50,609 nucleotides of DNA, from positions 1 through 50,609 of IMG/VR virus record IMGVR_UViG_3300026551_000001. One strand, written 5' to 3'. The translations under genes were made by a program, and so were the position numbers. Shown piece by piece: positions 4,884 to 35,328 of the stretch. The notes below the pieces were generated by a model, which was not told the origin of the DNA, did not search any database, and saw only the letters and a list, made by a program, of their open reading frames with translations. The stretch is from a virus (Duplodnaviria; Caudoviricetes). Positions within the stretch are counted from its first letter, which is position 1, and every line of letters starts with the position of its first letter.

Positions 4884-7800
4884 TGGCTGAAGCTCAGCCT
4901 ATCTCTTTAGACCAACCTGAAGAAGAGCAACAGACTCCTTTAATTAATTTAACTCCTCAAGATAGTATTCCTGTCTCTGAAGACATAGCCACTAAAAGAG
5001 CTTCTAAAGCTACGTTTGGTCTAACTCAGAAAATACCAGAGAAAACCTATCCAGATTACTACCGTTCAATATCCAATGGACAAGAGTTACAGACTCGTAG
5101 AGAGATCTCTACTACCTTAGACTATCAGAATACCTTGAATCGTTATAAACGTATCCAGGACTTCGCTACGTCTAAGGGAGATGCTTTAACACCAGAAGAT
5201 CTAGATAACTTACAGAATTTTATAAATGTTCCTTCTGCTGATCCTAGATCAGTCTTTGAAGACAATTACTCCAGGCGCTATATGGATACTCTTCGCAGTG
5301 CTCCTGGGTTTCCTGGTTCTTGGTATGATGACGTAGCTACTCAATATCCTCAATTAGTTCAAGCTACCGAGAACGTAGGTTCAAGGCGTATGCAACAAGC
5401 AGAATATGCTAGAACTAATAGAGAGAATGCAGAGGCTAAATCTAGAGCTCAATCTTATTTTGGAGATGTAATAGATAGAGCTAAAGAAATGATTCCTGGT
5501 TATGTAGAGTATAATCAGAGAATGGCTACTCCTAGTGGAGAATCTATGTTCCAAGGATTACTTGGAACTCAGTTAAATAATCTTGCTGTAGCTGGTTTAG
5601 ATCTTCCTGATCCTCAATTCAAAGATTGGTTTGATAGTAATTTCAATCGTCTTTTAAATAAAGATCCTCAACAAGCTGTGATGTTTGCTCATGCTGTTGA
5701 AGGTCAATCTATGTCTGAAACTACATTTAATAATGCTTTTACTTTATTAGATGCATCAGGTATCTATGGTACAGCTAAAGGAACTATTAAAGTTATTCGT
5801 GGTCTAGCTACTAAAGAATTAGGTCGTAGAGAGATACAAGATATTACTAAACAGATGGCTCAGTCTTCTATAGGAGCTCAGAAAGCTCCTGTCCAAGTAG
5901 TAGCTCATGCTGCTGCAGGAGATCTAGGAGAAGCTGCTGTACAACAATCTACCGCTAATGCTATGGGTGTGGCAGCAGGTACTGCTAATCTAGAAGAGAT
6001 GGCTCTTAATAAGCAGATGTCTTTCCTTAAAGCTCAGCAAGATAATATGAGAGCTACTTTTGGTAACTATGGACAGGAAGTAGTTAATCGTATTCAAGAG
6101 AAATCTGGTATCTTCTATGATAATCTTAGGACAGCTATATTGAATCGTATGCGTGTAGAACGTATACCAGAAGTAATAGCTACTCAGGATGGTATTAGAG
6201 CTATCAAAGAAGAGTTTTTAAATGATTATCCAGGTCTTCGCAATTCAATTATAGATATGAACTCCTTCTTACATTTAGAAGGATTAACCGATGTCGGTGG
6301 AGTAAAGTTCATAACTGCTAGCATAGGAAGAGAAGTTCCTAACGTTCATGATATTGTAATTAACTTAGGTAGACATACAGCAGAGTACTTTTCTTCTGAA
6401 GAAGAAGCTAAAGGAGTAGCTAATCTATATGGTCTGGTCGATCCTGTAATTAAAAATAGAGGAACAGGTTATACTATTGAACTGACTAAACCTTTAAATG
6501 AGACGTCCAAAGTATCTAGAGATTTCTTATTAAAAACTACCACATCTAAATCTCCAGATAGTTATGTTAATGCTTTCTTAGGATTCTTAAGAACTCCAGA
6601 TGAAACTCTATCTTTAGAACATAGACTTAACCGTAAGGTAGCTGCCTACGGTGGGTCTAATTTACTTAAAGTAGCTAAAGAAGAAATGAAATCTATTAGG
6701 GCTCTTACTAGATGGGCTTTACCTGGTACTCCTAAACGTGAGAGATATGATCAATGGGCTAAAGCTATAAATGAGTCTAGATATACATATGATCCTATGA
6801 CTCAACAGAGAGGATACTCTTTCTTATCTCCTGCTGAATTAGGAAATTACTATCAAACTAACTTTGGTAGACCTCCTTCCATAGGAGAAACACAAGCTTA
6901 CTTTACATTCTTTCGTATGACTGAGATGGATGCTATCTTACGTGATATGGGTTTATATAGGAATATGTCTAGGTTAGGTACAGAGCATTGGCAATTTTCT
7001 TCTTTAGGACACTATGGAGAAGAACTTAAGTCAGGGTTTGTCCCAGCTATTAAACAGAGTGTATTTCCTATTGGTCAGGATCCTATTCTAGTATTAGGAG
7101 ATTCTCAAGGTACTCATAAGATTGGTACTGTAGGGGGTAGAGGATTTGCTCCTAAGTTTGTAAATCAGATTAGAGATGATATTCAAGCAGGTACTAGACA
7201 AGTCTATAGAATATATGATCCTGAGACTAGACCTTTACAGAAGTTCTTAGATGATGATAATTCTCGTATTAGATATGTAGTTACTTCAAACACAAGAGGA
7301 GCTGAAAATAAACCTTTACCATTTAGCAATCTATCTAGACGTGGTGGCGGTCATTTTGATTATGATTATGATTTTTATATTAAACAAGGTAGAGTAGGTT
7401 GGGATAATGCTTATAAGAAGCATGTCTATGAAGGTGATAATACCATCATGGCTGCTCTTAGTCATGAACAAGGTAGACAAGTAGCTCAAGCTTTAGATGA
7501 AGTACGTATAGCTATTCTTAATAAAGATGAGGCTGCAGCTAAAGCTGTAGCTCAAACTAAAATACCAGCCATTCCTTTTAAAGAAATAAAGAGCTGGTTT
7601 AATGCTAAACGTAATTCTAATGGTGATTTAATTCCTCCTCGTCTTAATAGGCGTGAACCTATTATGGTAATTCCTAAGGGAAGTACTGTAATAGACCAAG
7701 ATCCAGGAATTCAGAGTAGAGCTTATTATGGTTCAACTCCTACGGGTAACCCTAGGTTTAAAGATGGAACTAGAGAAGGTTCTGATGCCAGACAGTATCA

Positions 7801-15313: not shown

Positions 15314-15597
15314 CTTCATCTCCTGTCGAGGGTCGCTGAGGGAAGCGCCTCTCTCGTCGGACTTTCTTCTTTTGTTCAATTCGTAATCTTTCTGCTTTAT
15401 TGGTTGGATGTTTATTCTTACTCATTGGTTGAATAACTTATGAATATCAAATGGAGTCGAGTACATTAAGATACAGGCTTTACCTAAACATGTGGACATA
15501 CTGTTAACATATATTAATGCTGAGATAACACCTAAACTAAACCATATAATTCTATGAAGTAGTTTATCTACAAGATCAACGATAACCATAACGTACC

Positions 15598-15945
15598 TCA
15601 TAAACCTAATAACCAATCTTCTGGAACATTACCGATGGCATATCTGAATCCATTCTTTATAGCCCATTTAATCTGTTTCTCTTTATATTCATAAAAGACT
15701 ATTCTCAGATCTATATTAGGATGCTGTCTCTTAACTGCTAACAGTTTGCATTTATCCTCTGGTCTTAGATAGCCTTTATATTCAATGTATATCTTTCCTA
15801 AAGGGGTATATAACTTAAAGTCTATAAGGTAGTGTCGAGCTAAGACATAAGGAATCTTTTCAGTTTCGTATTCAAATATAATCTTAGCTCGACGTAACTG
15901 ATTGGCTATAGATTCTTCTGATTTATTTCTAGTTCTTTTAGATAT
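15598..15945 (-). CDS. Endonuclease I / Holliday junction resolvase (T7 gp3-like), non-canonical ATA start, absent from the ORF track
   Basis: Manual translation ISKRTRNKSEESIANQL…FEYETEKIPY…HYLIDF…IYIEYKGYLRPEDKCKLLAVKRQHPNIDLRIVF…WAIKNGF…PEDWL*. An in-frame TGA lies 4 codons upstream and there is no ATG/GTG/TTG. Confidence 0.85.
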   Translation of the reverse strand: MSKRTRNKSEESIANQLRRAKIIFEYETEKIPYVLARHYLIDFKLYTPLGKIYIEYKGYLRPEDKCKLLAVKRQHPNIDLRIVFYEYKEKQIKWAIKNGFRYAIGNVPEDWLLGL

Positions 15946-16117
15946 TGTTAATTCTCATTTCTTCTAGTTGTTGTACTTTACGGGCTAATTCTAATATTAA
16001 ATCCATATCCATATTTGGATATAACAATCTACTATCTTGACCGTCATATTCTCCAGCAGCATTGATGTTGCTAAGATATTCTATGATTAATTGAGTTAAT
16101 AATAGTACATCAGACAT
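15938..16117 (-). CDS. Hypothetical protein
   Basis: Short ORF coupled to the endonuclease gene; start position uncertain. Confidence 0.5.
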   Translation of the reverse strand: MSDVLLLTQLIIEYLSNINAAGEYDGQDSRLLYPNMDMDLILELARKVQQLEEMRINNI

Positions 16118-16239
16118 CTTGTTTCTCATCTTCATCATTTAAATATTTACAATCTCTAATAGGTTTCTCACATTCGCACCAACCGTTTAATAGTTTACAG
16201 TCAGTCGGACTGTTATTATTATGTGGTTGAAACAAGTAA

Positions 16240-17097
16240 TCAGTGTATGACTTGTCCAGCTCTATTGATCTCGATGACATCAGGTTTCCTTTCTACGTGG
16301 GTAAGGTACTTAGGTCCATCGGAGTATAGAAAAGTTCTGAGACCAGGGAAACAAGTGTTCTTGTAGGCACTGTAGCTTGCTTTGGTATCAAGACCGATAT
16401 TCCCAGATCTACCTTCTGGTACTGTTTTACAGGTACATCTCGGAGCTTGAATAGAGTTTGCATATGATTTATATAATCTAATTCTCTCTTTGATGAACTC
16501 TTTTCGTAATGTATGTTCATATAATAACATATGTCCTAGTTGTTTGTCAATGATTAATAAGCATGCTTTATCTTTTACCAGTACCAAATCGTCGTTAATA
16601 CTAGCGCCCATATAAGCGTCAAGTTGAGATAGATAGCCCCAATCGTCAAGCGTTGTTTGATCTTTCCTTTTGAATTTATCCATCCCACGGCTAGAGGAAG
16701 ATTTAACATCAACAATGTAGCCGTCGATAATGCAGTCTCTATGACCGCGGATACCATCGAGAACAAGTTCATCCTGCTCTCCCGTAACTGTATGTCCTGA
16801 AGCCTTGGCAAGAGCTATAGCTTGAGCCTCTATTATATGACCAAAGGAATATTTGAACTCTGCCCATGGTGGTAGAGGCTCTGCTAACTCTGGTGTATGT
16901 ATCGAATGCCATAAAGCTTTAGGACAGACAGGCCCTAGTTTAGACATTCTTAAAGAAGGTTTATATGTATAGTTATATTGAGATTGTAATCTTTTGGTTA
17001 TGTTATTAGACAAATCCAGGGCTAGCTCATCAGTGAACCAGCCTCTGGTTGTCAATAGATATTGTATATCGGTAACCAGAGTATCGATTGTTTTTAT
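16240..17097 (-). CDS. PD-(D/E)XK exonuclease (Cas4/RecB-like); probable ATA start
   Basis: LRMSKLG..CPKALW, FGHIIE, GIRGHRDCIIDG.IVDVKS, GY..QL..Y motifs. AAAGGA RBS 8 nt before ATA at 17097, which overlaps the upstream TAA (ATAA). Confidence 0.8.
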   Translation of the reverse strand: MKTIDTLVTDIQYLLTTRGWFTDELALDLSNNITKRLQSQYNYTYKPSLRMSKLGPVCPKALWHSIHTPELAEPLPPWAEFKYSFGHIIEAQAIALAKASGHTVTGEQDELVLDGIRGHRDCIIDGYIVDVKSSSSRGMDKFKRKDQTTLDDWGYLSQLDAYMGASINDDLVLVKDKACLLIIDKQLGHMLLYEHTLRKEFIKERIRLYKSYANSIQAPRCTCKTVPEGRSGNIGLDTKASYSAYKNTCFPGLRTFLYSDGPKYLTHVERKPDVIEINRAGQVIH

Positions 17098-17351
17098 GGT
17101 ATCATTCCTTTTACTTGATGTGCAAGTTGTAAGTATAAGATTAGTTGTCCAAAACCTACGATTGGAGCGAATGCAGCCATTGTTACAAATGTCTGTGCTA
17201 TCTCCAACCATTTATCCTTCTTCTTAGGTGGTTCTGGTTTCTTGGCAGAGTCTTTGATTTCCTTTTCAACAGTCTTCCAAAAGTCTATTGTTTCTTTCAT
17301 CTGTTGAAGAGGGCTTTGTTGTGGACCGAAAGGACTTCCGTATCCATACAT
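17094..17351 (-). CDS. Small membrane protein
   Basis: GGAGG RBS before ATG at 17351; C-terminal hydrophobic segment. Confidence 0.7.
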   Translation of the reverse strand: MYGYGSPFGPQQSPLQQMKETIDFWKTVEKEIKDSAKKPEPPKKKDKWLEIAQTFVTMAAFAPIVGFGQLILYLQLAHQVKGMIP

Positions 17352-17389
17352 TGTAACCTCCATTCTAAATGGATTAAATATATTTTCTA

Positions 17390-18440
17390 ACGGGGGGATT
17401 TGTCCCCCCAAACTTAAGGTGGTTGTTTCATTTGTCCAGAGTGCACTAACATAAACATGTTACTACACCTCCATTAGTTAAAGTCTCGGACATGAGACTT
17501 GGGAGTCTCTCGATGGTTGACTGCCATTGAGACTCTGACTCTTAAGATCTCTACATCGAGAGGTCTGACGTGTCTGTTCCAGGTTTACTCCCACTGAGTA
17601 GTGTTTTAATGGGCGTTCCGGCTAGACATTGGCTAGTTCCCGGTTATACCAGTGTACTGGACACTGCGTCTCTTTAGATCTTTCGTCTGTTCAGCACAGA
17701 CCGGCGATCCTGTAGAGTATTCGATACTGAGACATCAACCTGAGGAACTTTTGAACCAATGGCTAATGGGACCACGGTGTCCAACAGTCTAAGATTTCAA
17801 CTCTTCAGAAGAGTGTCTACTTAGTTAATGATGCTACTGCTCAGCCTTTTCAGATCATATCCTTGTTGAGTCTACCACAGGTTGTTCGGTCTTACAACAT
17901 ATATAGGTTGCACCCTATATGCATCCGATCACATGGCACTCGCTCTATACCAATTCCGAGTTCGACTCTTATTTAGAGTCCTCATGAGCGTACCGTTGCT
18001 TTTCTGCCACTGTACCAGATCAAGGCTTAGATCCTACTTGTCCCTATGACTAGATCGTACTTGGAGTGACCTACTACACAATAGATCAGGATACTAATCA
18101 TAGGTCCTGCTTATGCTTCTCTAGCTGTTAGCTAGTTGACCACAGGTACACCACCATCCTTTGCCGTCCCTATGCCTTAAGGGTTGGACTCTATCAGGCT
18201 TTATTCCAACAGGACTAAGCTGACTGATCTCGTCTGTCACCGGAGGATAGATCTAAGTACCGGTTAAGTCCTACTCTCCGATATTTATAGCCTCCATGTC
18301 GGAGATAGCACGGGCCTATGCAGCGCTCTCATTCACTATGCTGTCCAAGTGACTAGTACGTTACTCATCCCAAACGAAGATGCCTTCCGTACATCTTACA
18401 CATAGGAGCGCTTACGAGAGGTAGGTCATCACTCCTACGT
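17390..18440 (-). ncRNA. Putative large structured non-coding RNA (~1.05 kb)
   Basis: No ORF of 60 aa or more in the track between 17412 and 18444; many local hairpins and nested long-range helices (see findings). Strand inferred from flanking genes and A-rich junctions. Confidence 0.75.
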
Positions 18441-18444
18441 TAGT

Positions 18445-18795
18445 TTAACCGTGTTCGAAGTCACGGTTAATAGTGGATGATTCTCCACTACTCTCGGTTC
18501 TGAATTCTTTCCCAATTAAATCATCTTTGGGACCTTCTGCTGGCCATTCTCTGCCAGTATTGTTCTGAGCTCGTTCGACTGCGGGTCGAATAGTAATTGG
18601 AGGAGAAGCTCGTTCTACTACTTCAATTACCTGACAGACGAATACTCTTGTAATGGTATTATCACTATTTAACTGTTTAGCAGCGTATCCATGAGCATCT
18701 ACTAATGTTGTCTTACAATTAGTAGGAATATTTTTAGGAAAGTCTTTATCCTGTATTGCTTTGAAAGCAACCGTTGCATAAAATTTCTCGTTCAT
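18445..18795 (-). CDS. Hypothetical protein
   Basis: GGGAG RBS and ATG; ends immediately before the putative ncRNA. Confidence 0.75.
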   Translation of the reverse strand: MNEKFYATVAFKAIQDKDFPKNIPTNCKTTLVDAHGYAAKQLNSDNTITRVFVCQVIEVVERASPPITIRPAVERAQNNTGREWPAEGPKDDLIGKEFRTESSGESSTINRDFEHG

Positions 18796-19452: not shown

Positions 19453-19959
19453 CTAGAATTCAGGATTATCAGCAGGCACTTTATTAAAGCCTCTGATTTC
19501 CTTTGGTTCCCTATTACTATTTGCTTCATAAGGGACTAATTTATCTACTCTGATAGAAACCAATCTAGCTGCTGTTCCTCCCATCTTAGCTCCAGGAGGA
19601 CTATAACTATAAGTCTCTAATTTAATAGTCACTTCAGAACCGTTACCAACATTAACGTTATAAGGTAGATTGTCTTTATCGATTATCATAGGCGCAGCAT
19701 ATAATCTACGCACACCTTTAATGATCTTCTCTGCTTGACAACCGAAGGCCATGTTATCTCCGTCCTCATCCCTCCTTAACCTATTCTTTAATCCTTCATA
19801 TTGTCTTCCATTTATAGTTTGTATTTCCTTTAATTTCTTAATCTTATCTAGAGATTCTTCATTAGGATATAACACCATGGCGTACTTACCGTACATATCT
19901 GGTGTAGCGACCCTAACCCATTTAGCTTTACCTTGTAAGTAGACGCTATTAGTAGCCAT
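19453..19959 (-). CDS. Single-stranded DNA-binding protein (T7 gp2.5-like)
   Basis: LQGKAKW…PD.YGKY, VGNGSEV…RL.SIRV..LV.Y motifs; C-terminal Phe; next to the DNA polymerase. Confidence 0.8.
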   Translation of the reverse strand: MATNSVYLQGKAKWVRVATPDMYGKYAMVLYPNEESLDKIKKLKEIQTINGRQYEGLKNRLRRDEDGDNMAFGCQAEKIIKGVRRLYAAPMIIDKDNLPYNVNVGNGSEVTIKLETYSYSPPGAKMGGTAARLVSIRVDKLVPYEANSNREPKEIRGFNKVPADNPEF

Positions 19960-20123
19960 TATATCAGTTCAACTCTGACTACCGTAGCTTCAAGAGCCTC
20001 TGGATTATTCTCTTCGAATTGTTCTAAGGCTAATACCTCAGCGTCATTCGGTCCTTTAACATCATCTACATCTACTTCAGCAAACATAGGTACTTCATAT
20101 TCAATATGTACTCTGTATTTCAT
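19959..20123 (-). CDS. Small acidic hypothetical protein (54 aa)
   Basis: MKYRVHIEYEV…VRVELI*, TAATG-coupled at both ends. Confidence 0.7.
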   Translation of the reverse strand: MKYRVHIEYEVPMFAEVDVDDVKGPNDAEVLALEQFEENNPEALEATVVRVELI

Positions 20124-22126
20124 TAATGGGTTACCTTCCAGTTTGTTCCTATTGTTTCTTTTCCATCATTCATGTAACTCCCTGCTAAAGGACACTTAAG
20201 TCCAAACATTTCACCTACCTCTCTCAATGCATCGCATTGTATTTGAGCCATCCAACGAGCTTCTTCTAGATCATTGGATGGCATTTCTGTCTGCCATTCA
20301 TCATGAACTAAGTTGACTAAGATCGGTTTCTTCGTACCAAACGTCCTATCCCCCAGATTATTCCAATGATTATCATTATATGTAGGAATGGTAGAATCTG
20401 ATACCAAGTTTGCATATCTCTTCTCCTCCGTCTCGCGTAAACGCTTCGACACTTTCTCTAACCACAGGATCGTGGCATGCTTCATTACAACTACTTCACC
20501 GTTCTGAAGATAACCACTCATAGCTAAGTGTCGTCTTTCACTTTCAGTTTCTCCCAGGATGTTAACCTTCCTACCATCCAGCCCAAAGAAATAGCCTCTC
20601 TTCGCATCTTTAGGAATAATAGTCTTTTTGAGCCTAGCGAATCCTTCGTATCGTCCCAGTAAATTAGCAAGAGCTTCTTTCGTTTTGTCTTCATTCGAGT
20701 CGAGAACTTCAGCCAGTTTCTTAATCCCTGCTCCAAGAAGAAGAGCGTAGATAAATCTTTTGGCAGCAGCTCTAGATTTACAGATACTTCCAAGAATTCT
20801 TTGGTTAAGCGAGTGCGGATCGCTTCCGTCATGTTTAGAACCCTTAACGATGGCATCTGTGAACTCCTGGTCGTCTATGTAGTGAGCAAATATTCTAAGC
20901 TGAATTCCTTCTGCGTCAACTCCAACGAGCAGTTTATTCTTATGTGCAGAGAAGCAGGAGCGCATTTCCCCGCCAAGTAACTTGACTTTCCCTTGAGTGT
21001 CCAACTCGTTCGGAATATTGGCCATATTAGGTTTTTGGTGTGCCATACGATGCGTCCATGCACCGATAGCAATAAACCTTCCATGTATTCTTCCGGTAGA
21101 TGGATTGTATAGGTTAGACCATTCGGTGAGAGTTCTCCTTCTCGCCTCGAATAGAATTCTTCTGGCCAGAGTTCTAGCTGACCTTGGAGCAGCACTGGGT
21201 AGTGAACTGATATTAGTTTCATTGATCTTCCACCCATATTTCTTAAGATCTTCTCTAATTATACCTTGTCTATCAGACTCTACGTGCGTCTTAGTCTTGT
21301 CCGTTGGTTTCCAACCTGCTCCTGTAAGAACGTCCACAATCTGTCTGTGGCTTGATGGATTAAAGGATTTGAATTCACATCTACAGAAAGGGTATCCATT
21401 GAATTCTGTAAGATCTCCATCTTGAACCCACCTGAAATCTTTGCGATGTAAAGTACCATGTTTAGTTCTTTCTGGATGTATTTCTCTTATTAAAGAAAGA
21501 TGAGGAGGAAAGGATTTAAGTATCTCTTCATCTAAATTCTTTAATTCTAAAGTTACTTTCTCCAGTAACTTATTACACTTTGTAATATCAAAATAAAACC
21601 CATTATTGTGCAAAGAATTAACAATGATTTGGAACTTGTGTTCACAAGTAATAGCATTCCTGTACTTAGGATTATTGATGCTATCAAGATAGCTAAGATA
21701 AATACGCTGACAGATATCGACGTCCCTAATACAATACGTAACCATCTCTTCAGATAACTTAGACCAGTCATTGAATTCTCCTTTAGGTAAGTTAAATTCA
21801 ATTCCGTAATCTTCTATTGAATGTCCTTGGCGCGAATAGTTAAATAACTTAGAAATAATAAGGGTATCAATAATATTGGTAAGACTAATGCAATCATAAA
21901 ACTTAATAAGATTACACAGGACAGGGTAATCATAACCAAGAATGTTGTGCCCCACCAATCTAGTACATCTTTTAACCAAGGTTTTAAACTTCTCCACCTC
22001 TGTTTGATCTTCGTGGAGATTTCTAAATACATAATATTCTCCTGTATCTGTGTCTTTACAGACGACACACCATATCTTAGTAGGACTTTCTAATTTATCG
22101 CATTCAATATCAATTATTAATTGCAT
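20123..22126 (-). CDS. Family A DNA polymerase (T7 gp5-like) with 3'-5' exonuclease
   Basis: IIDIE, GHNILGYD and YCIRDV exonuclease motifs; motif A VGVDAEGIQLR, motif B RAAAKRFIYALLLGAG, motif C LVHDEWQ. Confidence 0.95.
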   Translation of the reverse strand: MQLIIDIECDKLESPTKIWCVVCKDTDTGEYYVFRNLHEDQTEVEKFKTLVKRCTRLVGHNILGYDYPVLCNLIKFYDCISLTNIIDTLIISKLFNYSRQGHSIEDYGIEFNLPKGEFNDWSKLSEEMVTYCIRDVDICQRIYLSYLDSINNPKYRNAITCEHKFQIIVNSLHNNGFYFDITKCNKLLEKVTLELKNLDEEILKSFPPHLSLIREIHPERTKHGTLHRKDFRWVQDGDLTEFNGYPFCRCEFKSFNPSSHRQIVDVLTGAGWKPTDKTKTHVESDRQGIIREDLKKYGWKINETNISSLPSAAPRSARTLARRILFEARRRTLTEWSNLYNPSTGRIHGRFIAIGAWTHRMAHQKPNMANIPNELDTQGKVKLLGGEMRSCFSAHKNKLLVGVDAEGIQLRIFAHYIDDQEFTDAIVKGSKHDGSDPHSLNQRILGSICKSRAAAKRFIYALLLGAGIKKLAEVLDSNEDKTKEALANLLGRYEGFARLKKTIIPKDAKRGYFFGLDGRKVNILGETESERRHLAMSGYLQNGEVVVMKHATILWLEKVSKRLRETEEKRYANLVSDSTIPTYNDNHWNNLGDRTFGTKKPILVNLVHDEWQTEMPSNDLEEARWMAQIQCDALREVGEMFGLKCPLAGSYMNDGKETIGTNWKVTH

Positions 22127-28376: not shown

Positions 28377-28462
28377 TGGTGCTCACAGCCAGACTCGAAC
28401 TGGCACGGATATTCTCCATCAGATTTTAAGTCTGATGCGTCTACCTATTTCGCCATGTGAGC
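28377..28462 (-). tRNA. tRNA-Leu, anticodon TAA, CCA encoded
   Basis: GCTCACA acceptor stem / TGTGAGC-ACCA; ATCAGA-CTTAAAA-TCTGAT anticodon arm; long variable arm; GCCAG-TTCGAGT-CTGGC T arm. Confidence 0.95.
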
Positions 28463-32844: not shown

Positions 32845-34227
32845 ATGTCAGATCAAGACACATTCTATGCCGAGTTAGCGCAACAGTATCGAGATAAGTT
32901 TCAGTTACGTTATGGCCGTCCAGTTAATCTGACCGATACGGAAATAACGGATATCATCGACAACGATGATACTGAAAATGAAGATACTGATACTGTTGAT
33001 CGGTCTATCTTGGTACAGATGAAAGACGCTGAAGCACCGGAGGAAACTACGGGTATTAACAGCGTCCATGTTATCGAAAGCTTGGCTATTAATATGGCAC
33101 GTAAAGCTGCAAACAACGCAGTATTTATGCAACATGTTAAGGAAGCTTTAGAAGCGCCAGAAGTGATGAAGCGCGCATCTACAGTTATGTTGTGGGATAT
33201 GCGCAACATATTCTGTACTAAGCGTGAAGATGGTCAGTGGGATTGGAGTGAAATAGATAAATTGCCAATCCCTGGCAGTATGCGCAAACGTGATAGGTTA
33301 ATGTTAGATGACATGGACCTTGGACCATTAGGTAACCGATTACATGATAAGTATTTGGTTCCTACTACTGAGGTAGGTAAAGATGGCAAACCTAAGAATG
33401 AAACACGTTCATTCTATAAGACGTTTGCTAAACATTTACCGCATGGTGAGGAAATCCAAGACAAGCTAGATAGTTTGGTCTTGGCTAACAAACCTGAAAC
33501 CAGACAACAAGCAATGGTTGAACACCGCACTATGTCATCGACTAAACGAGATGCGGAAGGTTATCGGTTAAGAGAACGTAAAAGCCGATTACCTAAGCTT
33601 GCAGGACAAGCTATTGCGTGTCGTTTCCAATGGCGTGATATCGAGGAAGAGTTACCCAAGGTAGCAGTCGGGTTTAACTTCCTTGAATTCGATGATGTTG
33701 GTCAAGGTATTGAAGATTTTACAGAGGTAGCTAAACCTTATTGGATTAGTGCTAAAGCTAATACCAATAAGAATGATATTTTAAGCGCAACTGAGTTTCT
33801 ACGTTTGAATATCCAAGTCGCCAAAGATAATGGCGGCACATATGATGCACTCTCTGCAACACTAGCAAGAGCACCTAAGAAGCCATCGACTGGCATCAAA
33901 GAGATCGATAGTCCAGAAATGTTGACGACATATTGGGCTGTCGAGGCTGCTTTCATGGATCAAAGACACAGCGACTGGCGTAAAAGAGAGACGGCCATCA
34001 TCGCTGCATTGAGAGCAGACCCTCATGCAATACGATCCTTCGGCAATGTTCAGATGGCTACCGATGGAGTCTGGAAGGTTATTCAGCCTCTATATGATGC
34101 CCTCATCCAAGAGGATATCAGAGCAGAGGCGAATGAGAGAAAAGAAAAGGCTAAGAAACTAGCAGAGAGACACAATGAACAGGTTAAGCCTGTCCAAGAT
34201 AACAAACTAGCCGATCTAATGAAGTAG
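32845..34227 (+). CDS. Hypothetical 460 aa protein in a stand-alone transcription unit
   Basis: GGAG RBS, own promoter and terminator; no motif recognised. Confidence 0.85.
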   Translation: MSDQDTFYAELAQQYRDKFQLRYGRPVNLTDTEITDIIDNDDTENEDTDTVDRSILVQMKDAEAPEETTGINSVHVIESLAINMARKAANNAVFMQHVKEALEAPEVMKRASTVMLWDMRNIFCTKREDGQWDWSEIDKLPIPGSMRKRDRLMLDDMDLGPLGNRLHDKYLVPTTEVGKDGKPKNETRSFYKTFAKHLPHGEEIQDKLDSLVLANKPETRQQAMVEHRTMSSTKRDAEGYRLRERKSRLPKLAGQAIACRFQWRDIEEELPKVAVGFNFLEFDDVGQGIEDFTEVAKPYWISAKANTNKNDILSATEFLRLNIQVAKDNGGTYDALSATLARAPKKPSTGIKEIDSPEMLTTYWAVEAAFMDQRHSDWRKRETAIIAALRADPHAIRSFGNVQMATDGVWKVIQPLYDALIQEDIRAEANERKEKAKKLAERHNEQVKPVQDNKLADLMK

Positions 34228-34402
34228 GTGACACATGAGAGTGAATATCAATGGCTCTCATGTAGTGGTTTGTATGTCCGTCTATGATTTGCATATCATC
34301 TGTGATGCTTTGCAAAAGGGATGCGCATACAAATCGGACAAGGAACCACGTATTGAGTTGAGAGATAAAATACTCAGTGCGATACAAGATACCAAATAAA
34401 CT

Positions 34403-34440
34403 AATAGCCCTAGGCTTAACAGCTTAGGGCTATTTTTATG
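34403..34440 (+). terminator. Rho-independent terminator
   Basis: AATAGCCCTAGGC-ttaaca-GCTTAGGGCTATT followed by TTTATG. Confidence 0.85.
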
Positions 34441-34653
34441 TTTATCGTAGTATACATTAGGATATTACGCGTATTACTTTAGTTACAATACTCTTAATCT
34501 ATGACATTAAGATACTAATGTATTCATTGTACTAAAAGTATTTCTATAATACTCAACTAATAGTTATAGATACTAGTATAGTATTATATAGATACTTACG
34601 TTATATTACTTAGAGTATTACGCTAGAAAAGAGCCTTAAGAGGTATCCTACCA

Positions 34654-34727
34654 TAATCCTATTATAATCCTCTCGTAATCCTATAAATAATCCTATTAGA
34701 ACCCTCCATAGGGGGTCGTAGGGGGTC
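34654..34727 (+). repeat. Phased short direct repeats (4x TAATCCT, 2x TAGGGGGTC)
   Basis: TAATCCT at 34654, 34665, 34676, 34688; TAGGGGGTC at 34709 and 34719. Confidence 0.75.
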
Positions 34728-34776
34728 AAGGCAGCAACGAATTACACCTAAAATATATCTGACAATATTTTTTACA

Positions 34777-34866
34777 TATAGGAAGCCCGTACAGAAGACT
34801 TTTTATAGGGTGGTACTAAGGTAGCGGGCATGTCATTTAAATGCATCAGTGAGCCTCCTAGGTACC
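34777..34866 (-). repeat. Dispersed three-box DNA element, copy D (more divergent)
   Basis: - strand reads CTAGGAGGCTCACTGATG … CTACCTTAGTACC … CTATAAAAA … GGGCTTCCTA. Confidence 0.55.
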
Positions 34867-35042
34867 CTCTCGCCTCTGATATCTTGCATTGCTACATTTC
34901 TCTCATAGAACTTGTATCTTCTAAGAATATCGTTAGCTCTAGTCAGATTATACATGTATTGAGATAAAACTTTATCTTTCCATTGTAATCTAAACATATT
35001 ATTATATCTAGAATCTTTAACTACTTTAATAGGTTTAGGCAT
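34833..35042 (-). CDS. Small basic hypothetical protein
   Basis: 69 aa ORF divergent from the late promoter. Confidence 0.55.
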   Translation of the reverse strand: MPKPIKVVKDSRYNNMFRLQWKDKVLSQYMYNLTRANDILRRYKFYERNVAMQDIRGERVPRRLTDAFK

Positions 35043-35070
35043 ATTTATATATCTTTCTATAAAATAATAC

Positions 35071-35099
35071 TTGACAAAGGATTCAAAGTATGATATAAG
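35071..35099 (+). promoter_or_regulatory. Sigma70-type promoter heading the structural arm
   Basis: TTGACA-17 nt-TATAAG with TGn extended -10. Confidence 0.75.
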
Positions 35100-35154
35100 A
35101 CAATTATCTTAAATAGACGTATTTAAGTTATAACATATATAAAGATTTAAATCA

Positions 35155-35328
35155 ATGAATATTGGAGATAGAGTTATAAAAGTTACAGGAGATTATGCAT
35201 TTAATGGTATTATTGTCTCTAAGTTTAATAAACTTAATGGTGCTGAAAGATATGTAGCAGAAAACAAAGAAGGTATCTTATTTATATTCTCCAGTAAACA
35301 ATTAAAAGGATTCAATAATGAATTATGA
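35155..35328 (+). CDS. 57 aa SH3-fold protein resembling R67/DfrB-like proteins
   Basis: MNIGDRVIKVTGDYAFNGIIVSKF…RYVAENKEGILFIFSSKQL; below the ORF-track cut-off. Confidence 0.55.
   Translation: MNIGDRVIKVTGDYAFNGIIVSKFNKLNGAERYVAENKEGILFIFSSKQLKGFNNEL

Follow-up and report, generated by a model that had tools for sequence, protein, structure and literature searches.

The DNA analysed here, which we call the window throughout (50,609 nucleotides), is the complete genome (50.6 kb) of a podophage from soil that is a relative of the Zobellviridae, and its terminase, 62% identical to that of Celeribacter phage P12053L, marks it as a podovirus-type relative of the SIO1-like roseophages. A region of about 1.05 kb on the minus strand of the replication module, with the SSB and DNA polymerase genes on one side and an exonuclease gene on the other, is described below as a structured RNA (Table 1). 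Neither the 116-aa protein encoded upstream nor the 85-aa protein encoded downstream of it matched a PHROG or Pfam family. Homologous ORFs of 102–104 aa precede the RNA in four related loci (L002, L003, L004 and L011), nearly all related loci have a small ORF at the corresponding place in front of the exonuclease, and the 85-aa protein shares only a weak hydrophobic stretch with the 96-aa protein of a second group of relatives (cluster B, see below). The sole tRNA gene of the genome (ARAGORN, 28377–28462) lies 10 kb from the RNA. Of seven sequencing runs retrieved for the sequence, all of them DNA from soil metagenomes, six contain this stretch in whole or in part; there was no RNA run among them.

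No ORF of 60 aa or more was found on either strand between 17412 and 18444 (the largest, of 55 aa, lies at 17882–18049 on the plus strand), and each of the six frames contains 17–29 stops. Reading through TGA, TAG or TAA alone opens none of the frames, which gives no support to coding in another genetic code. Variable columns show no codon periodicity (140/133/128 by position modulo 3), and 84 of the 100 gap runs in the cluster-A alignment (see below) are not multiples of three.

Table 1. Genes and structural parts at the locus, in window coordinates. Helix numbers refer to the comparative structure.
Feature	Coordinates	Strand	Basis or remark
Cas4-domain exonuclease gene	16240..17097	-	phrog_1990, E 1.6e-19
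Downstream gene, 85 aa, with hydrophobic C-terminal stretch and GGAGGU ribosome-binding site (17355-17361)	17094..17361	-	ORF and sequence
Whole structured RNA, ~1,046 nt	17392..18437	-	Alignment A1, RNAalifold; ORF-free
3' tail: anti-Shine-Dalgarno-like motif (CCACCUUAAG, 17413-17422), then G6/C6 hairpin (17392-17409)	17392..17423	-	~30 nt before the next gene's ribosome-binding site
3' domain, helices 31-43, closed by invariant 8-bp helix 30 (UCCAUUAG/CUAAUGGA)	17470..17770	-	Invariant runs of 21, 17 and 14 nt
Middle domain, helices 18-26, with long invariant blocks 17921-17934 and 17874-17889	17852..18034	-	Comparative structure
Variable arm, helices 15 and 16	18040..18107	-	Helix 16: 6 of 7 pairs with double changes
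Core domain, multi-helix junction of helices 8, 9, 11 and 12	18134..18321	-	Only part recognisable in distant relatives
Near-invariant core hairpin and 5' flank (CCUCCGGUGACAGACGNGAUCAGUCAGC)	18219..18246	-	Stem UGAC/GUCA becomes UGGC/GCCA in L033 and L049
Hairpin UCUCCGA/UCGGAGA with conserved loop (CAUGGAGGCUA..AAA)	18275..18305	-	Folds in 6 of 7 cluster-A sequences
5' domain, helices 3-5, closed by invariant 7-bp helix AGCGCUC/GAGCGCU	18322..18412	-	Helix 2 paired in 94% of cells
Upstream gene, 116 aa	18445..18795	-	ORF list; stop codon directly adjoins the RNA

With the Cas4-domain exonuclease as syntenic anchor, 32 related viral loci were found, many of which have an ORF-poor gap at the same syntenic place, and within the clade the RNA always lies between the SSB side and the side of the small ORF and the exonuclease. 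In the cultured relatives Roseobacter phage CRP-13, Sinorhizobium phage phiM6 and phage T5S1-k141 the genes are tightly packed and there is no gap before the exonuclease. No cultured carrier of the RNA was found, and none of 50,697 phage records matched the region in a blastn search (setting 'distant').

The window and four relatives were aligned (alignment A1, five cluster-A sequences) and a common structure was predicted with RNAalifold. Among the 282 predicted pairs, 46 showed changes on both sides, compared with 21.7 ± 3.0 in shuffled alignments (0 of 500 as high) and 4–11 when partners were slid, and 94.3% of the cells were paired as against 89.5% after shuffling (0 of 500). Here, as in the alignments described below, each structure was predicted from the very alignment on which it was then tested, and this inflates the pair counts. 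Entire hairpins are exchanged for different hairpins in the relatives, and arms are gained or lost at helix tips; L076 lacks about 270 alignment columns, including the 5' strands of the middle domain. Possibly this domain is dispensable, or the L076 copy is broken.

As delimited here, the RNA extends from a 5' hairpin just past the stop codon of the upstream gene to the G6/C6 hairpin at its 3' end; transcript data on its true ends are lacking. In the 5' domain, helices 4 and 5 have two double-change pairs each. The variable arm is missing in L076, and its tip holds an inserted tRNA-like acceptor/T-arm minihelix in L011, L002, L004 and L075. Helices 20, 22, 23 and 25 of the middle domain, which contains invariant runs of 14 and 16 nt, show one to three double-change pairs each, and double changes in the 3' domain fall in helices 35 and 39 (four each), 41 (two), and 38 and 42 (one each). 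Helix 46, the 3' G6/C6 hairpin, has one G-C to C-G change.

A sequence-only reading of this stretch had proposed a large ornate non-coding RNA in 1 kb without an ORF of 60 aa or more, a claim that held in all six frames, and had listed eight local stems, all of which are present in the sequence. Six of them coincide with comparative helices, namely 17392–17409 (helix 46), 17481–17500 (43), 17503–17535 (41), 17685–17701 (35), 17901–17920 (25) and 17964–17980 (23), and five of these six have compensatory changes. The stem at 18275–18305 also held, in two clearly covarying versions (UCUCCGA/UCGGAGA in three sequences and UCCUUA/UAAGGA in three others); a third version, in L075 (CGUUA/UAACG), was not chosen in the minimum free energy (MFE) fold. 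RNAalifold chose other partners here, and since these overlap the partners of its helices 6 and 7, a pseudoknot or an alternative fold is possible. The eighth stem, 18183–18210, lies in a lineage-specific variable arm outside the reach of the comparison. Two of the four nested closing helices that had been proposed were supported, CGCTC/GAGCG within helix 22 and AGCGCTC/GAGCGCT as the invariant helix 2, and the other two (TGTACC/GGTACA at 18011/18145 and AGGACT/AGTCCT at 18211/18267) failed and are replaced by the covarying helices 8, 12 and 20. The proposed pseudoknot between 17627 and 17756 failed as well, its partner segment being altered or deleted in L011, L002 and L004.

The core was followed into more distant relatives with a covariance model (R1; 169 positions, 49 pairs), which gave 24 matches at E ≤ 10 in 49 sources, five of them its own training sequences. 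Matches on the syntenic strand include L033 (1e-7), L008 (3.5e-5) and L023 (1e-3), and R1 found the core in its syntenic position and orientation even in phages in which the exonuclease next to it has an identity of only 54–60%. In the resulting core alignment (A3), 40 of the 49 pairs change on both sides (shuffles 20.3 ± 2.7, slid controls 11–16) and 89.1% of the cells are paired, compared with 69.8% after shuffling (0 of 500); since this alignment was fitted to R1, its pair counts are inflated too. One pair of helix 7, for instance, is AU in 14 sequences and GC in four. Of 28 loci outside cluster A, 11 contain a 16-nt invariant block of the core (18231–18246) with two substitutions or fewer, and the other nine invariant blocks gave only 0 to 4 scattered, non-syntenic matches each outside cluster A, with no consistent recurrence. 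An nhmmer profile of cluster A likewise recognised nothing but the core when applied to distant loci. A core-pattern scan of viral contigs returned 27 stretches, roughly half of them probably chance matches, and these were not used. The same scan of the genomes of 185,579 species returned nine matches, all in G+C-rich coding context without an ORF-free gap or T-arms; we read them as chance, so that cellular genomes yielded no instance of the RNA.

Seven further sequences form a second syntenic cluster (cluster B), with RNAs of about 1.15–1.5 kb in which 114 of 307 pairs have double changes (shuffles 57.8 ± 4.8 with a maximum of 72 in 300; slid controls 23–33). R1 did not match cluster B, and a cluster-B nhmmer profile matched nothing outside it; homology between the two clusters, based on synteny and short motifs, is tentative. 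Most relatives carry one to six canonical tRNA T-arm hairpins, or tRNA-like elbow modules, in their peripheral arms. The T-arm motif had 66 matches on the gene strand and 2 on the opposite strand, and the RNA of the window itself has none, so that tRNA mimicry cannot be the core function. The insertion in L011 scored 15.5 bits (E 5.4) with the tRNA model, over the acceptor and T arms only (cut-off 29 bits), and positions 5167–5234 of L015 scored 29.4 bits (E 0.023) against the tRNA-like part of YrlA (cut-off 69 bits). True tRNAs were not found by ARAGORN in the region or in 29 related loci. Taken together, the family consists of a small core, conserved even where the remaining sequence can no longer be recognised, cluster-specific domains that are kept by compensatory changes, and exchangeable peripheral arms.

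Compensatory changes were well above controls in three independent alignments (cluster A, core and cluster B), which satisfies one of the general criteria for a structured functional non-coding RNA, compensatory base changes above controls in homologues. Folding energy adds little. Against 30 shuffles per strand, the whole RNA has a folding z-score of −3.63 when read from the minus strand and of −2.42 when read from the plus strand, and because four coding controls of equal length range from −1.4 to −4.6, the whole-RNA score is uninformative in this genome; local z-scores in 150-nt windows were unremarkable. The excess over chance comes from covariation, and by energy alone the region is not special. 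Overall sequence conservation does not help either. Pairwise identity of the cluster-A RNAs is 76–84% (91% for one pair), compared with 76–83% (93% for that pair) at four-fold degenerate sites of the exonuclease, and 56% of the RNA columns are invariant versus 69% of the four-fold sites, from which we conclude that much of the RNA drifts at about the neutral rate. With folding energy and overall identity both unable to set the region apart, covariation and the deeply conserved core carry the argument, and on these grounds we consider it very likely, in the absence of expression data, that the region is a real functional structured RNA.

The near-neutral divergence is what would be expected if the region were a tRNA island in decay, or an accumulation of selfish RNA or DNA modules, its hairpins and T-arms being relics without function for the organism. 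Indels are frequent (8–24% gapped columns per cluster-A pair), a module of about 50 nt (CCAGGAAGAC...CUACACCGG) has seemingly been inserted at two different sites in different relatives, L076 has its large deletion, and the T-arms resemble tRNA fragments although no tRNA is called. Against this stand the compensatory changes in all three alignments, the invariant runs of at least 12 nt (11 observed versus 0.4–3.7 expected; 0–1 of 2000 simulations), and the retention of the core in phages with such divergent exonucleases. Moreover, 48 of 63 T-arm matches retain the full 5-bp stem and the canonical loop, and the element is kept at one place in nearly every member, in a compact lytic-type genome of about 50 kb. 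We therefore regard decay as very unlikely.

The RNA is likely to be encoded on the minus strand, which is also the gene strand. MFE was lower on this strand in all five cluster-A sequences, 38–41% of the unpaired positions are A when read on it, and T-arms are oriented with it. Counts of G-U versus A-C pairs favour it in the T-stems (14:2) and in the cluster-B helices predicted on both strands (52:23), and are undecided in the cluster-A helices shared by both strand predictions (16 versus 22). These strand-specific signatures also bear on the possibility that the region acts as DNA, as a replication origin, a primer-RNA or R-loop site or a packaging signal. In favour of this are its place between the SSB/DNA polymerase and exonuclease genes and its G+C content of 0.45–0.47, unlike that of the flanks (0.34–0.40). 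However, the region has no iterons, notable direct-repeat families or tandem repeats and no A+T-rich unwinding stretch, the cumulative GC skew does not turn in the profiled 14–22 kb stretch, and covariation keeps pairing rather than sequence. A DNA-level element is thus very unlikely.

Comparison with known RNA families yielded no assignment. At gathering scores, Rfam 15 found only a tRNA-Leu (28380–28462) in the whole window and nothing in the RNA region, and no match in ten related loci. At E ≤ 10 with lax filters, three junk matches were returned for 17200–18600, none of them credible in the region, and at E ≤ 10 none for the L011 copy; the models of GOLLD (RF02032), ROOL (RF03087) and group-II-D1D4-1 (RF01998) had no match at E ≤ 10 in the phage genome. 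The GOLLD model also had none in 15 related loci. The ROOL model gave no match in 14 control genomes either, and this test is only as good as the model. In five T-arm-rich loci, the only match at E ≤ 1 was a sub-threshold piece of YrlA (RF02553), a family that we rejected, as its 29.4 bits were reached in one relative only and nothing was found in the window. No Ro/Rsr (TROVE) protein was identified among the 27 window proteins scanned against PHROGs and/or Pfam. A tRNA gene or tRNA array was rejected, since in the region ARAGORN called no cloverleaf and the Rfam tRNA model had no match that reached its 29-bit cut-off, and so was a group I or group II intron, for which there was no Rfam match at E ≤ 10 and no internal ORF. 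In the literature searched, no kilobase-scale phage RNA of this kind was found beyond the work on GOLLD, ROOL and OLE and a catalogue of short motifs.

The region might still be a very divergent GOLLD, ROOL, group I or II intron or RNase P-like RNA that the Rfam models miss. Its phage setting, large size and modular variable arms are as in GOLLD and ROOL, and the linker of GOLLD, which like ROOL is a phage RNA found near tRNA islands, sometimes holds tRNAs (PMC12286853), comparable to the tRNA-like minihelix in the variable arm here. Against this are the missing matches in the window and the ten related loci at gathering scores and, at E ≤ 10, in the region, the L011 copy and genome-wide for the three models named above, and the flanking ORFs, which are separate and complete, each with its own stop, ribosome-binding site and start codon, and without an intron-encoded protein. 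We consider this explanation very unlikely and a new, previously undescribed family of 1.0–1.5 kb the likely one. The sequence-only reading had left open whether the RNA was a divergent member of the GOLLD and ROOL classes or a new class: a large ornate phage RNA is supported by the comparative evidence, the new-class branch held, with no match in Rfam 15 or to GOLLD, ROOL or introns in the region, and the divergent branch is unsupported. Its preference for the minus strand and its assignment to a podovirus were supported, with G-U evidence favourable in T-stems and cluster B only. It had named as refuting outcomes a folding energy no better than that of shuffled sequences, a test whose result (z −3.63) is offset by the coding controls, and ribosome profiling that shows small ORFs or a lack of covariation among homologues; in the sequence no frame opens, and covariation exceeds both shuffled and slid controls.

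The likenesses to described systems are nevertheless informative. Like GOLLD, the window RNA is phage-encoded, longer than 800 nt and multi-domain, has conserved and variable parts and no known protein partner, and may have a link to tRNAs, which in GOLLD sometimes lie in the linker (PMC12286853) and of which the window's relatives have tRNA-like modules, though no true tRNAs, in their variable arms. It differs in that its conserved core lies in the 5' third and not in the 3' half, in that the new family holds T-arm or elbow mimics instead of complete tRNAs and is longer (1.05–1.5 kb), and in its location in a podophage replication module, 10 kb from the only tRNA gene. With ROOL it shares the character of a large ornate RNA of phages and prophages with many helices and unknown function, but it is about twice the size, and tRNA-like modules are unreported for ROOL (PMC12286853). 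The L015 module resembles YrlA in its permuted order of T-arm, hairpin and D-arm closed by a stem; the match, however, covers about 68 nt of an RNA of more than 1 kb, and the window RNA has no such module. As in phage tRNA clusters, the region is ORF-free and hairpin-rich with a G+C content above that of its flanks, and relatives have their canonical T-arm hairpins, whereas the greater part of the RNA is structure of other kinds than tRNA and has a conserved core of its own. Finally, a catalogue of intergenic motifs from IMG/VR, the same source collection, lists short candidate structured RNAs of 29–151 nt only (8,495 'DNAVirus' motifs; PMC10690425); it may include pieces of the window RNA, but no kilobase-scale RNA is described in the sections of that work that bear on it.

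The 3' tail raises the question of action in cis. In 16 of 31 loci, an anti-Shine-Dalgarno-like motif (CCUCCUUAA or CACCUUAAG) on the gene strand precedes the exonuclease start by 197–614 nt, and the hairpin that follows it is not a classical terminator, since no U-tract follows. The whole region could therefore be part of an mRNA, a giant intercistronic leader through which the small ORF and the exonuclease are controlled at the level of processing, stability or translation, for example as a folding-dependent clamp on the ribosome-binding site or as an RNase processing hub, without any function in trans. In line with this, neither a promoter nor an intrinsic terminator was identified for the region itself, which adjoins the upstream stop codon and ends about 30 nt before the next ribosome-binding site; the motif and the GC hairpin stand just before the next gene; the motif is predicted to pair around the hairpin with the next Shine-Dalgarno sequence in L016 (z −4.0) and L013; and in all cluster-A sequences the 5' hairpin sequesters a Shine-Dalgarno-like sequence together with an AUG. 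However, tens of nucleotides suffice for a clamp, not 1.0–1.5 kb, the most deeply conserved part (18219–18246) lies about 860 nt from the ribosome-binding site that would be regulated, it is hard to see what tRNA-like modules would contribute to such control, the window's own clamp is predicted to pair only weakly (z −0.85), and the cultured relatives express the same genes without such a leader. A purely cis-acting leader is thus unlikely.

The best explanation of the data as a whole, which we favour by a narrow margin (probability roughly 0.55), is a new giant ornate phage RNA that acts in trans as a scaffold or decoy and carries a cis-acting clamp at its 3' end; its function is inferred and there are no expression data. 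According to this model, the RNA would be made within the polycistronic transcript of the replication genes, an origin inferred from the missing promoter and terminator, and its terminal hairpins would insulate it. It would act mainly in trans as a folded particle, a putative scaffold or decoy for host factors that handle tRNAs or act in translation, presenting the invariant core hairpin and, in the relatives, tRNA mimics as well, while its 3' tail, as judged from fold predictions, may in addition act in cis by covering the next gene's ribosome-binding site. A comparable role of the scaffold or decoy type has been proposed for GOLLD and ROOL, and as we have only this analogy to go by, the scaffold or decoy mechanism taken by itself is more doubtful than not. 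A bolder reading is possible, though less likely than not, in which the RNA is the founding member of a class of kilobase-sized phage RNA machines or particles, its invariant core organising exchangeable arms with tRNA-elbow mimics, and in which it may self-assemble into a cage like those of GOLLD and ROOL, whose homo-oligomeric, RNA-only cages are a feature of these two RNAs (PMC12286853), or may act as a ribozyme or decoy on the tRNA and translation apparatus of the host during infection. If this were true, it would be the largest ornate phage RNA known, at 1.0–1.5 kb, and the first in the replication module of alphaproteobacterial-type podophages.

Few very large folded RNAs of bacteria and phages are known (GOLLD, ROOL, OLE, raiA and HEARO), and their functions are mostly open; recent cryo-EM work is reported to have shown GOLLD and ROOL as RNA-only cages. 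An unrelated family of 1.0–1.5 kb would enlarge this small set of giant RNAs and offer a new angle on their role, with a recognisable invariant core, natural domain-swap and deletion variants, and tRNA-like modules. As this case shows, a kilobase without ORFs in a metagenomic phage genome may conceal an RNA gene that pipelines for short motifs fragment. The repeated exact tRNA T-arms point to host tRNA-handling or translation factors as testable partners, and the fact that the RNA takes up 2–3% of a compact lytic-type genome argues that it matters to infection.

The RNA (17392-18437) lies within a block of minus-strand replication genes (see table) of a complete 50,609-bp viral record with direct terminal repeats, whose large proteins match a tail appendage, DNA polymerase I, a primase/helicase, a large terminase and a portal-type connector (PHROG phrog_332, 'head-tail adaptor'). 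The large terminase shares 62% identity with the Celeribacter phage P12053L protein and resembles those of other SIO1-like roseophages, and the Cas4-domain exonuclease is 30-41% identical to its Roseobacter, Sinorhizobium and Pelagibacter phage counterparts, which makes this a podovirus-type phage related to Zobellviridae. Judging from these relatives, the host is probably alphaproteobacterial; the runs containing the sequence were soil metagenome DNA only. A 323-aa exonuclease ORF (16240-17211) overlaps the 85-aa gene by 118 nt in the window, while in three related viral-contig loci (L002, L003 and L004) the matching 5' part is in a different frame and the ORF has 285 aa, so that the true start is probably near 17097. 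Two other stretches of the window hold only short ORFs. In 34400-35155 (~750 nt), between a 460-aa gene (32845-34227) and a plus-strand gene run from 35155, the ORFs on both strands are limited to 45-69 aa. The other, 15380-16240, directly downstream of the exonuclease, is low in G+C (0.30-0.33), its ORFs are all of 56-66 aa, and 320 nt of it (15617-15937) are free of ORFs; it could harbour small genes or regulatory DNA.

Genes around the ORF-free region in the window
Feature	Position	Strand	Remark
DNA polymerase	20123-22126	minus	replication block
gp2.5-like SSB	19453-19959	minus	replication block
Small ORFs	between SSB and 116-aa ORF	minus	replication block
116-aa ORF	18445-18795	minus	adjoins gap upstream
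85-aa ORF	17094-17351	minus	downstream of gap; GGAGGU ribosome-binding site
Cas4-like exonuclease	16240-17097	minus	after 85-aa ORF

No ORF of at least 60 aa was found on either strand of 17412-18444; each frame contains 17-29 stops, and reassigning any one stop codon opens none. The G+C content is 0.45-0.47, compared with 0.34-0.40 in the flanks. In A1, a five-sequence alignment (1,289 columns) of cluster A (the window and its close relatives), variable columns were even across codon positions (140/133/128), 84 of 100 gap runs were not multiples of three and no long open frame was shared. A coding reading was therefore rejected for want of an ORF, of codon periodicity and of a frame under stop reassignment. 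The eight local stems listed by the sequence-only reading were all found in place. That reading had also proposed that a folding energy no better than shuffled sequence would count against a structured RNA. For the whole RNA, z was -3.63 (minus strand) and -2.42 (plus strand), coding stretches of equal length, four in all, gave -1.4 to -4.6, and 150-nt windows were unremarkable; the region is thus not special by energy, and since coding controls reach the same values, the test is uninformative in this genome.

The evidence for structure comes from relatives. A protein search with the exonuclease yielded 32 viral-contig loci, among which L002, L003, L004 and L011 match the whole region at 75-78% nucleotide identity (exonucleases 83-86% identical), and a metagenome scan with one invariant block brought in L076 (86% to the window) as well as a partial locus, L075 (83-93%). 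In the remaining loci sequence likeness was limited to a short core; many nevertheless show an interval of at least ~1 kb that is poor in ORFs, in the corresponding position between the SSB side and the small ORF preceding the exonuclease. No match was found among GenBank phage records, three cultured relatives are tightly packed with genes and lack a gap at the corresponding place, and the RNA was not found in cellular genomes, where all nine core-pattern matches fell in G+C-rich coding sequence. RNAalifold on A1 predicted 282 pairs in 46 helices, with 94.3% of cells paired compared with 89.5% in shuffled alignments (0/500). Pairing-preserving changes on both sides were seen at 46 pairs, versus 21.7±3.0 after shuffling (0/500) and 4-11 when the 3' partners were slid by 1-3 columns, and the covariation score was 0.206 versus 0.114 (shuffled) and 0.04-0.06 (slid), with the caveat that the structure was derived from the alignment in which double changes were counted. 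Several hairpins were swapped entirely for different ones (in helix 16, six of seven pairs changed), and additional hairpins were inserted at helix tips.

Within cluster A, similarity of sequence cannot be taken as a sign of selection: identity is 76-84% for the RNA (closest pair 91%) and 76-83% for four-fold degenerate sites of the exonuclease (same pair 93%), so that the RNA on average drifts at about the neutral rate, and 56% of RNA positions versus 69% of four-fold sites are invariant in all five sequences. Conservation is very uneven: against an expectation of 0.4 to 3.7, there are 11 invariant runs of 12-21 nt (0-1 of 2000 simulations). Of 28 loci outside cluster A, 11 contain one of these blocks, 18231-18246, with no more than two substitutions; the other nine invariant blocks showed no consistent recurrence (0 to 4 scattered, non-syntenic matches each). 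R1, a covariance model of the core domain around it (18134-18321; 169 positions, 49 pairs), gave 24 matches at E<=10 in 49 sources, five of them its own training sequences. The others included L033 (E 1e-7), L008 (3.5e-5) and L023 (1e-3, full length), with weaker ones in L005, L030, L020, L021, L010 and L007. In every exonuclease-anchored locus the match was syntenic and on the gene strand, and the exonucleases of these phages are only 54-60% identical. In the R1-derived alignment, which is fitted to that model, double changes occur at 40 of 49 pairs (slid controls, 11-16) and 89.1% of cells are paired versus 69.8% shuffled (0/500); the stem of the invariant hairpin covaries from UGAC/GUCA to UGGC/GCCA.

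A second syntenic group, cluster B (L013, L014, L016, L017, L019, L024, L025 and L026), carries an ORF-poor region of 1.15-1.5 kb at the same place. RNAalifold on seven of these eight loci predicted 307 pairs, 114 with double changes (57.8±4.8 shuffled, maximum 72 of 300; 23-33 slid), and paired cells amounted to 89.7% versus 80.5% shuffled. Neither cluster's profile reaches the other, and the link therefore rests on synteny, on a similar GGUGAC-loop-GUCAGC hairpin with a G(A)GCAAAGG motif after it, on the shared order of core hairpin and then T-arms, and on a common 3' end. That the clusters form one family is probable, not shown.

Several observations make the minus (gene) strand the likely one. 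Minimum free energy was lower on it in all five cluster-A sequences (alifold energy -464 vs -426) and in five of seven of cluster B (-423 vs -394), unpaired positions are 38-41% A versus 21-24% U, and T-arms read correctly solely on this strand. Among helices predicted on both strands, G-U exceeded A-C in cluster B (52 vs 23), and the cluster-A count (16 vs 22) left the strand undecided; the outer pairs of 54 distinct T-stems gave 14 vs 2.

The tRNA T-arm motif comprised the T-arm loop with its two closing pairs. Across 31 loci including the window it matched 66 times on the gene strand and twice on the opposite one (chance expectation <1 per strand, our estimate from motif information content), 65 of the 66 lying 233-3,066 nt before the exonuclease in 26 loci. 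In 28 non-redundant loci, 48 of 63 matches had all three further pairs of a canonical 5-bp T-stem. Single loci carry up to six; in L015:4343-5234 six T-arm hairpins occur within 900 nt. The window's own RNA has no T-arm. A tRNA array was rejected, as no tRNA was called in the region or by ARAGORN in any of 29 related loci; Rfam at gathering scores found nothing in ten. The nature of these modules is shown by two alignments below threshold: the L011 insertion matched the tRNA model over its acceptor and T arms only, without D and anticodon arms (15.5 bits), and L015:5167-5234 aligned to the tRNA-like part of YrlA, matching its permuted, stem-closed layout of T-arm, hairpin and D-arm (29.4 bits, E 0.023; cut-off 69 bits). 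The window's close relatives L011, L002, L004 and L075 carry the tRNA-like minihelix at the tip of the arm corresponding to 18040-18107.

Two further observations concern the build of the RNA. Two different insertion sites were seen for a ~50-nt module (CCAGGAAGAC ... CUACACCGG around a small hairpin), one in the 3' domain of L003 and L002 (A1 columns ~1075-1130) and one within the tRNA-like insertion of L004 and L075 (columns ~430-480 of A4, a later alignment); it looks like an RNA building block that can move, or else a very small mobile element. L076:4944-5837 (minus), 86% identical to the window RNA (17389-18440), lacks ~270 columns (A4 ~367-635), so that the variable arm and the middle domain's 5' strands are missing and hairpin 23 is halved. 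This copy may be broken or misassembled, or else the middle domain may be dispensable; the variant warns that some parts of the RNA are not indispensable.

On the minus strand, the RNA has neither a sigma-70-like promoter before it nor a U-tract hairpin after it, from which we infer that it is probably part of the replication-gene transcript. Just upstream, within the last codons of the 116-aa gene, a 7-bp hairpin (18449-18474, AACCGUG ... CACGGUU, minus strand) may be where processing or pausing occurs. Every cluster-A sequence has, at its 5' edge, a small hairpin that holds an SD-like sequence and an AUG; the mini-ORF after it was rejected as a gene because its length and frame differ among them. 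At the 3' edge, 16 of 31 loci have an anti-SD-like motif and a G+C-rich hairpin before the next gene's ribosome-binding site. Pairing of the motif with that gene's SD around the hairpin is predicted for L016 (z -4.0) and L013; in the window this pairing is weak (z -0.85). This predicted clamp suggests an additional cis effect on the next gene. A rival explanation, that the whole is a cis-acting mRNA leader, is unlikely, although it keeps real weight.

The RNA has a conserved, modular and strand-specific structure with a deeply conserved core. We infer that it would act in trans as a folded RNA particle, because it is large, its core lies far from any regulated site, no partner gene travels with it, and its relatives use exact tRNA T-arms, which point to factors recognising the tRNA elbow or T-arm. 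The reading also draws on analogy: the phage RNAs GOLLD and ROOL lie close to tRNA islands and form RNA-only cages, with tRNAs sometimes in the GOLLD linker (PMC12286853). The earlier suggestion of a divergent GOLLD or ROOL was not supported by model search: neither these nor introns gave a covariance-model match, and an iteron origin was rejected as there are no iterons or tandem repeats. No Rfam 15 family matches the RNA, and no kilobase-scale phage RNA of such kind was found in the literature searched. The IMG/VR motif catalogue holds motifs of 29-151 nt only (PMC10690425); pieces of the RNA may be among them, its supplementary alignments having fallen outside our comparison. The RNA thus most likely represents a new family within a known kind, the giant ornate phage RNAs of unknown function.
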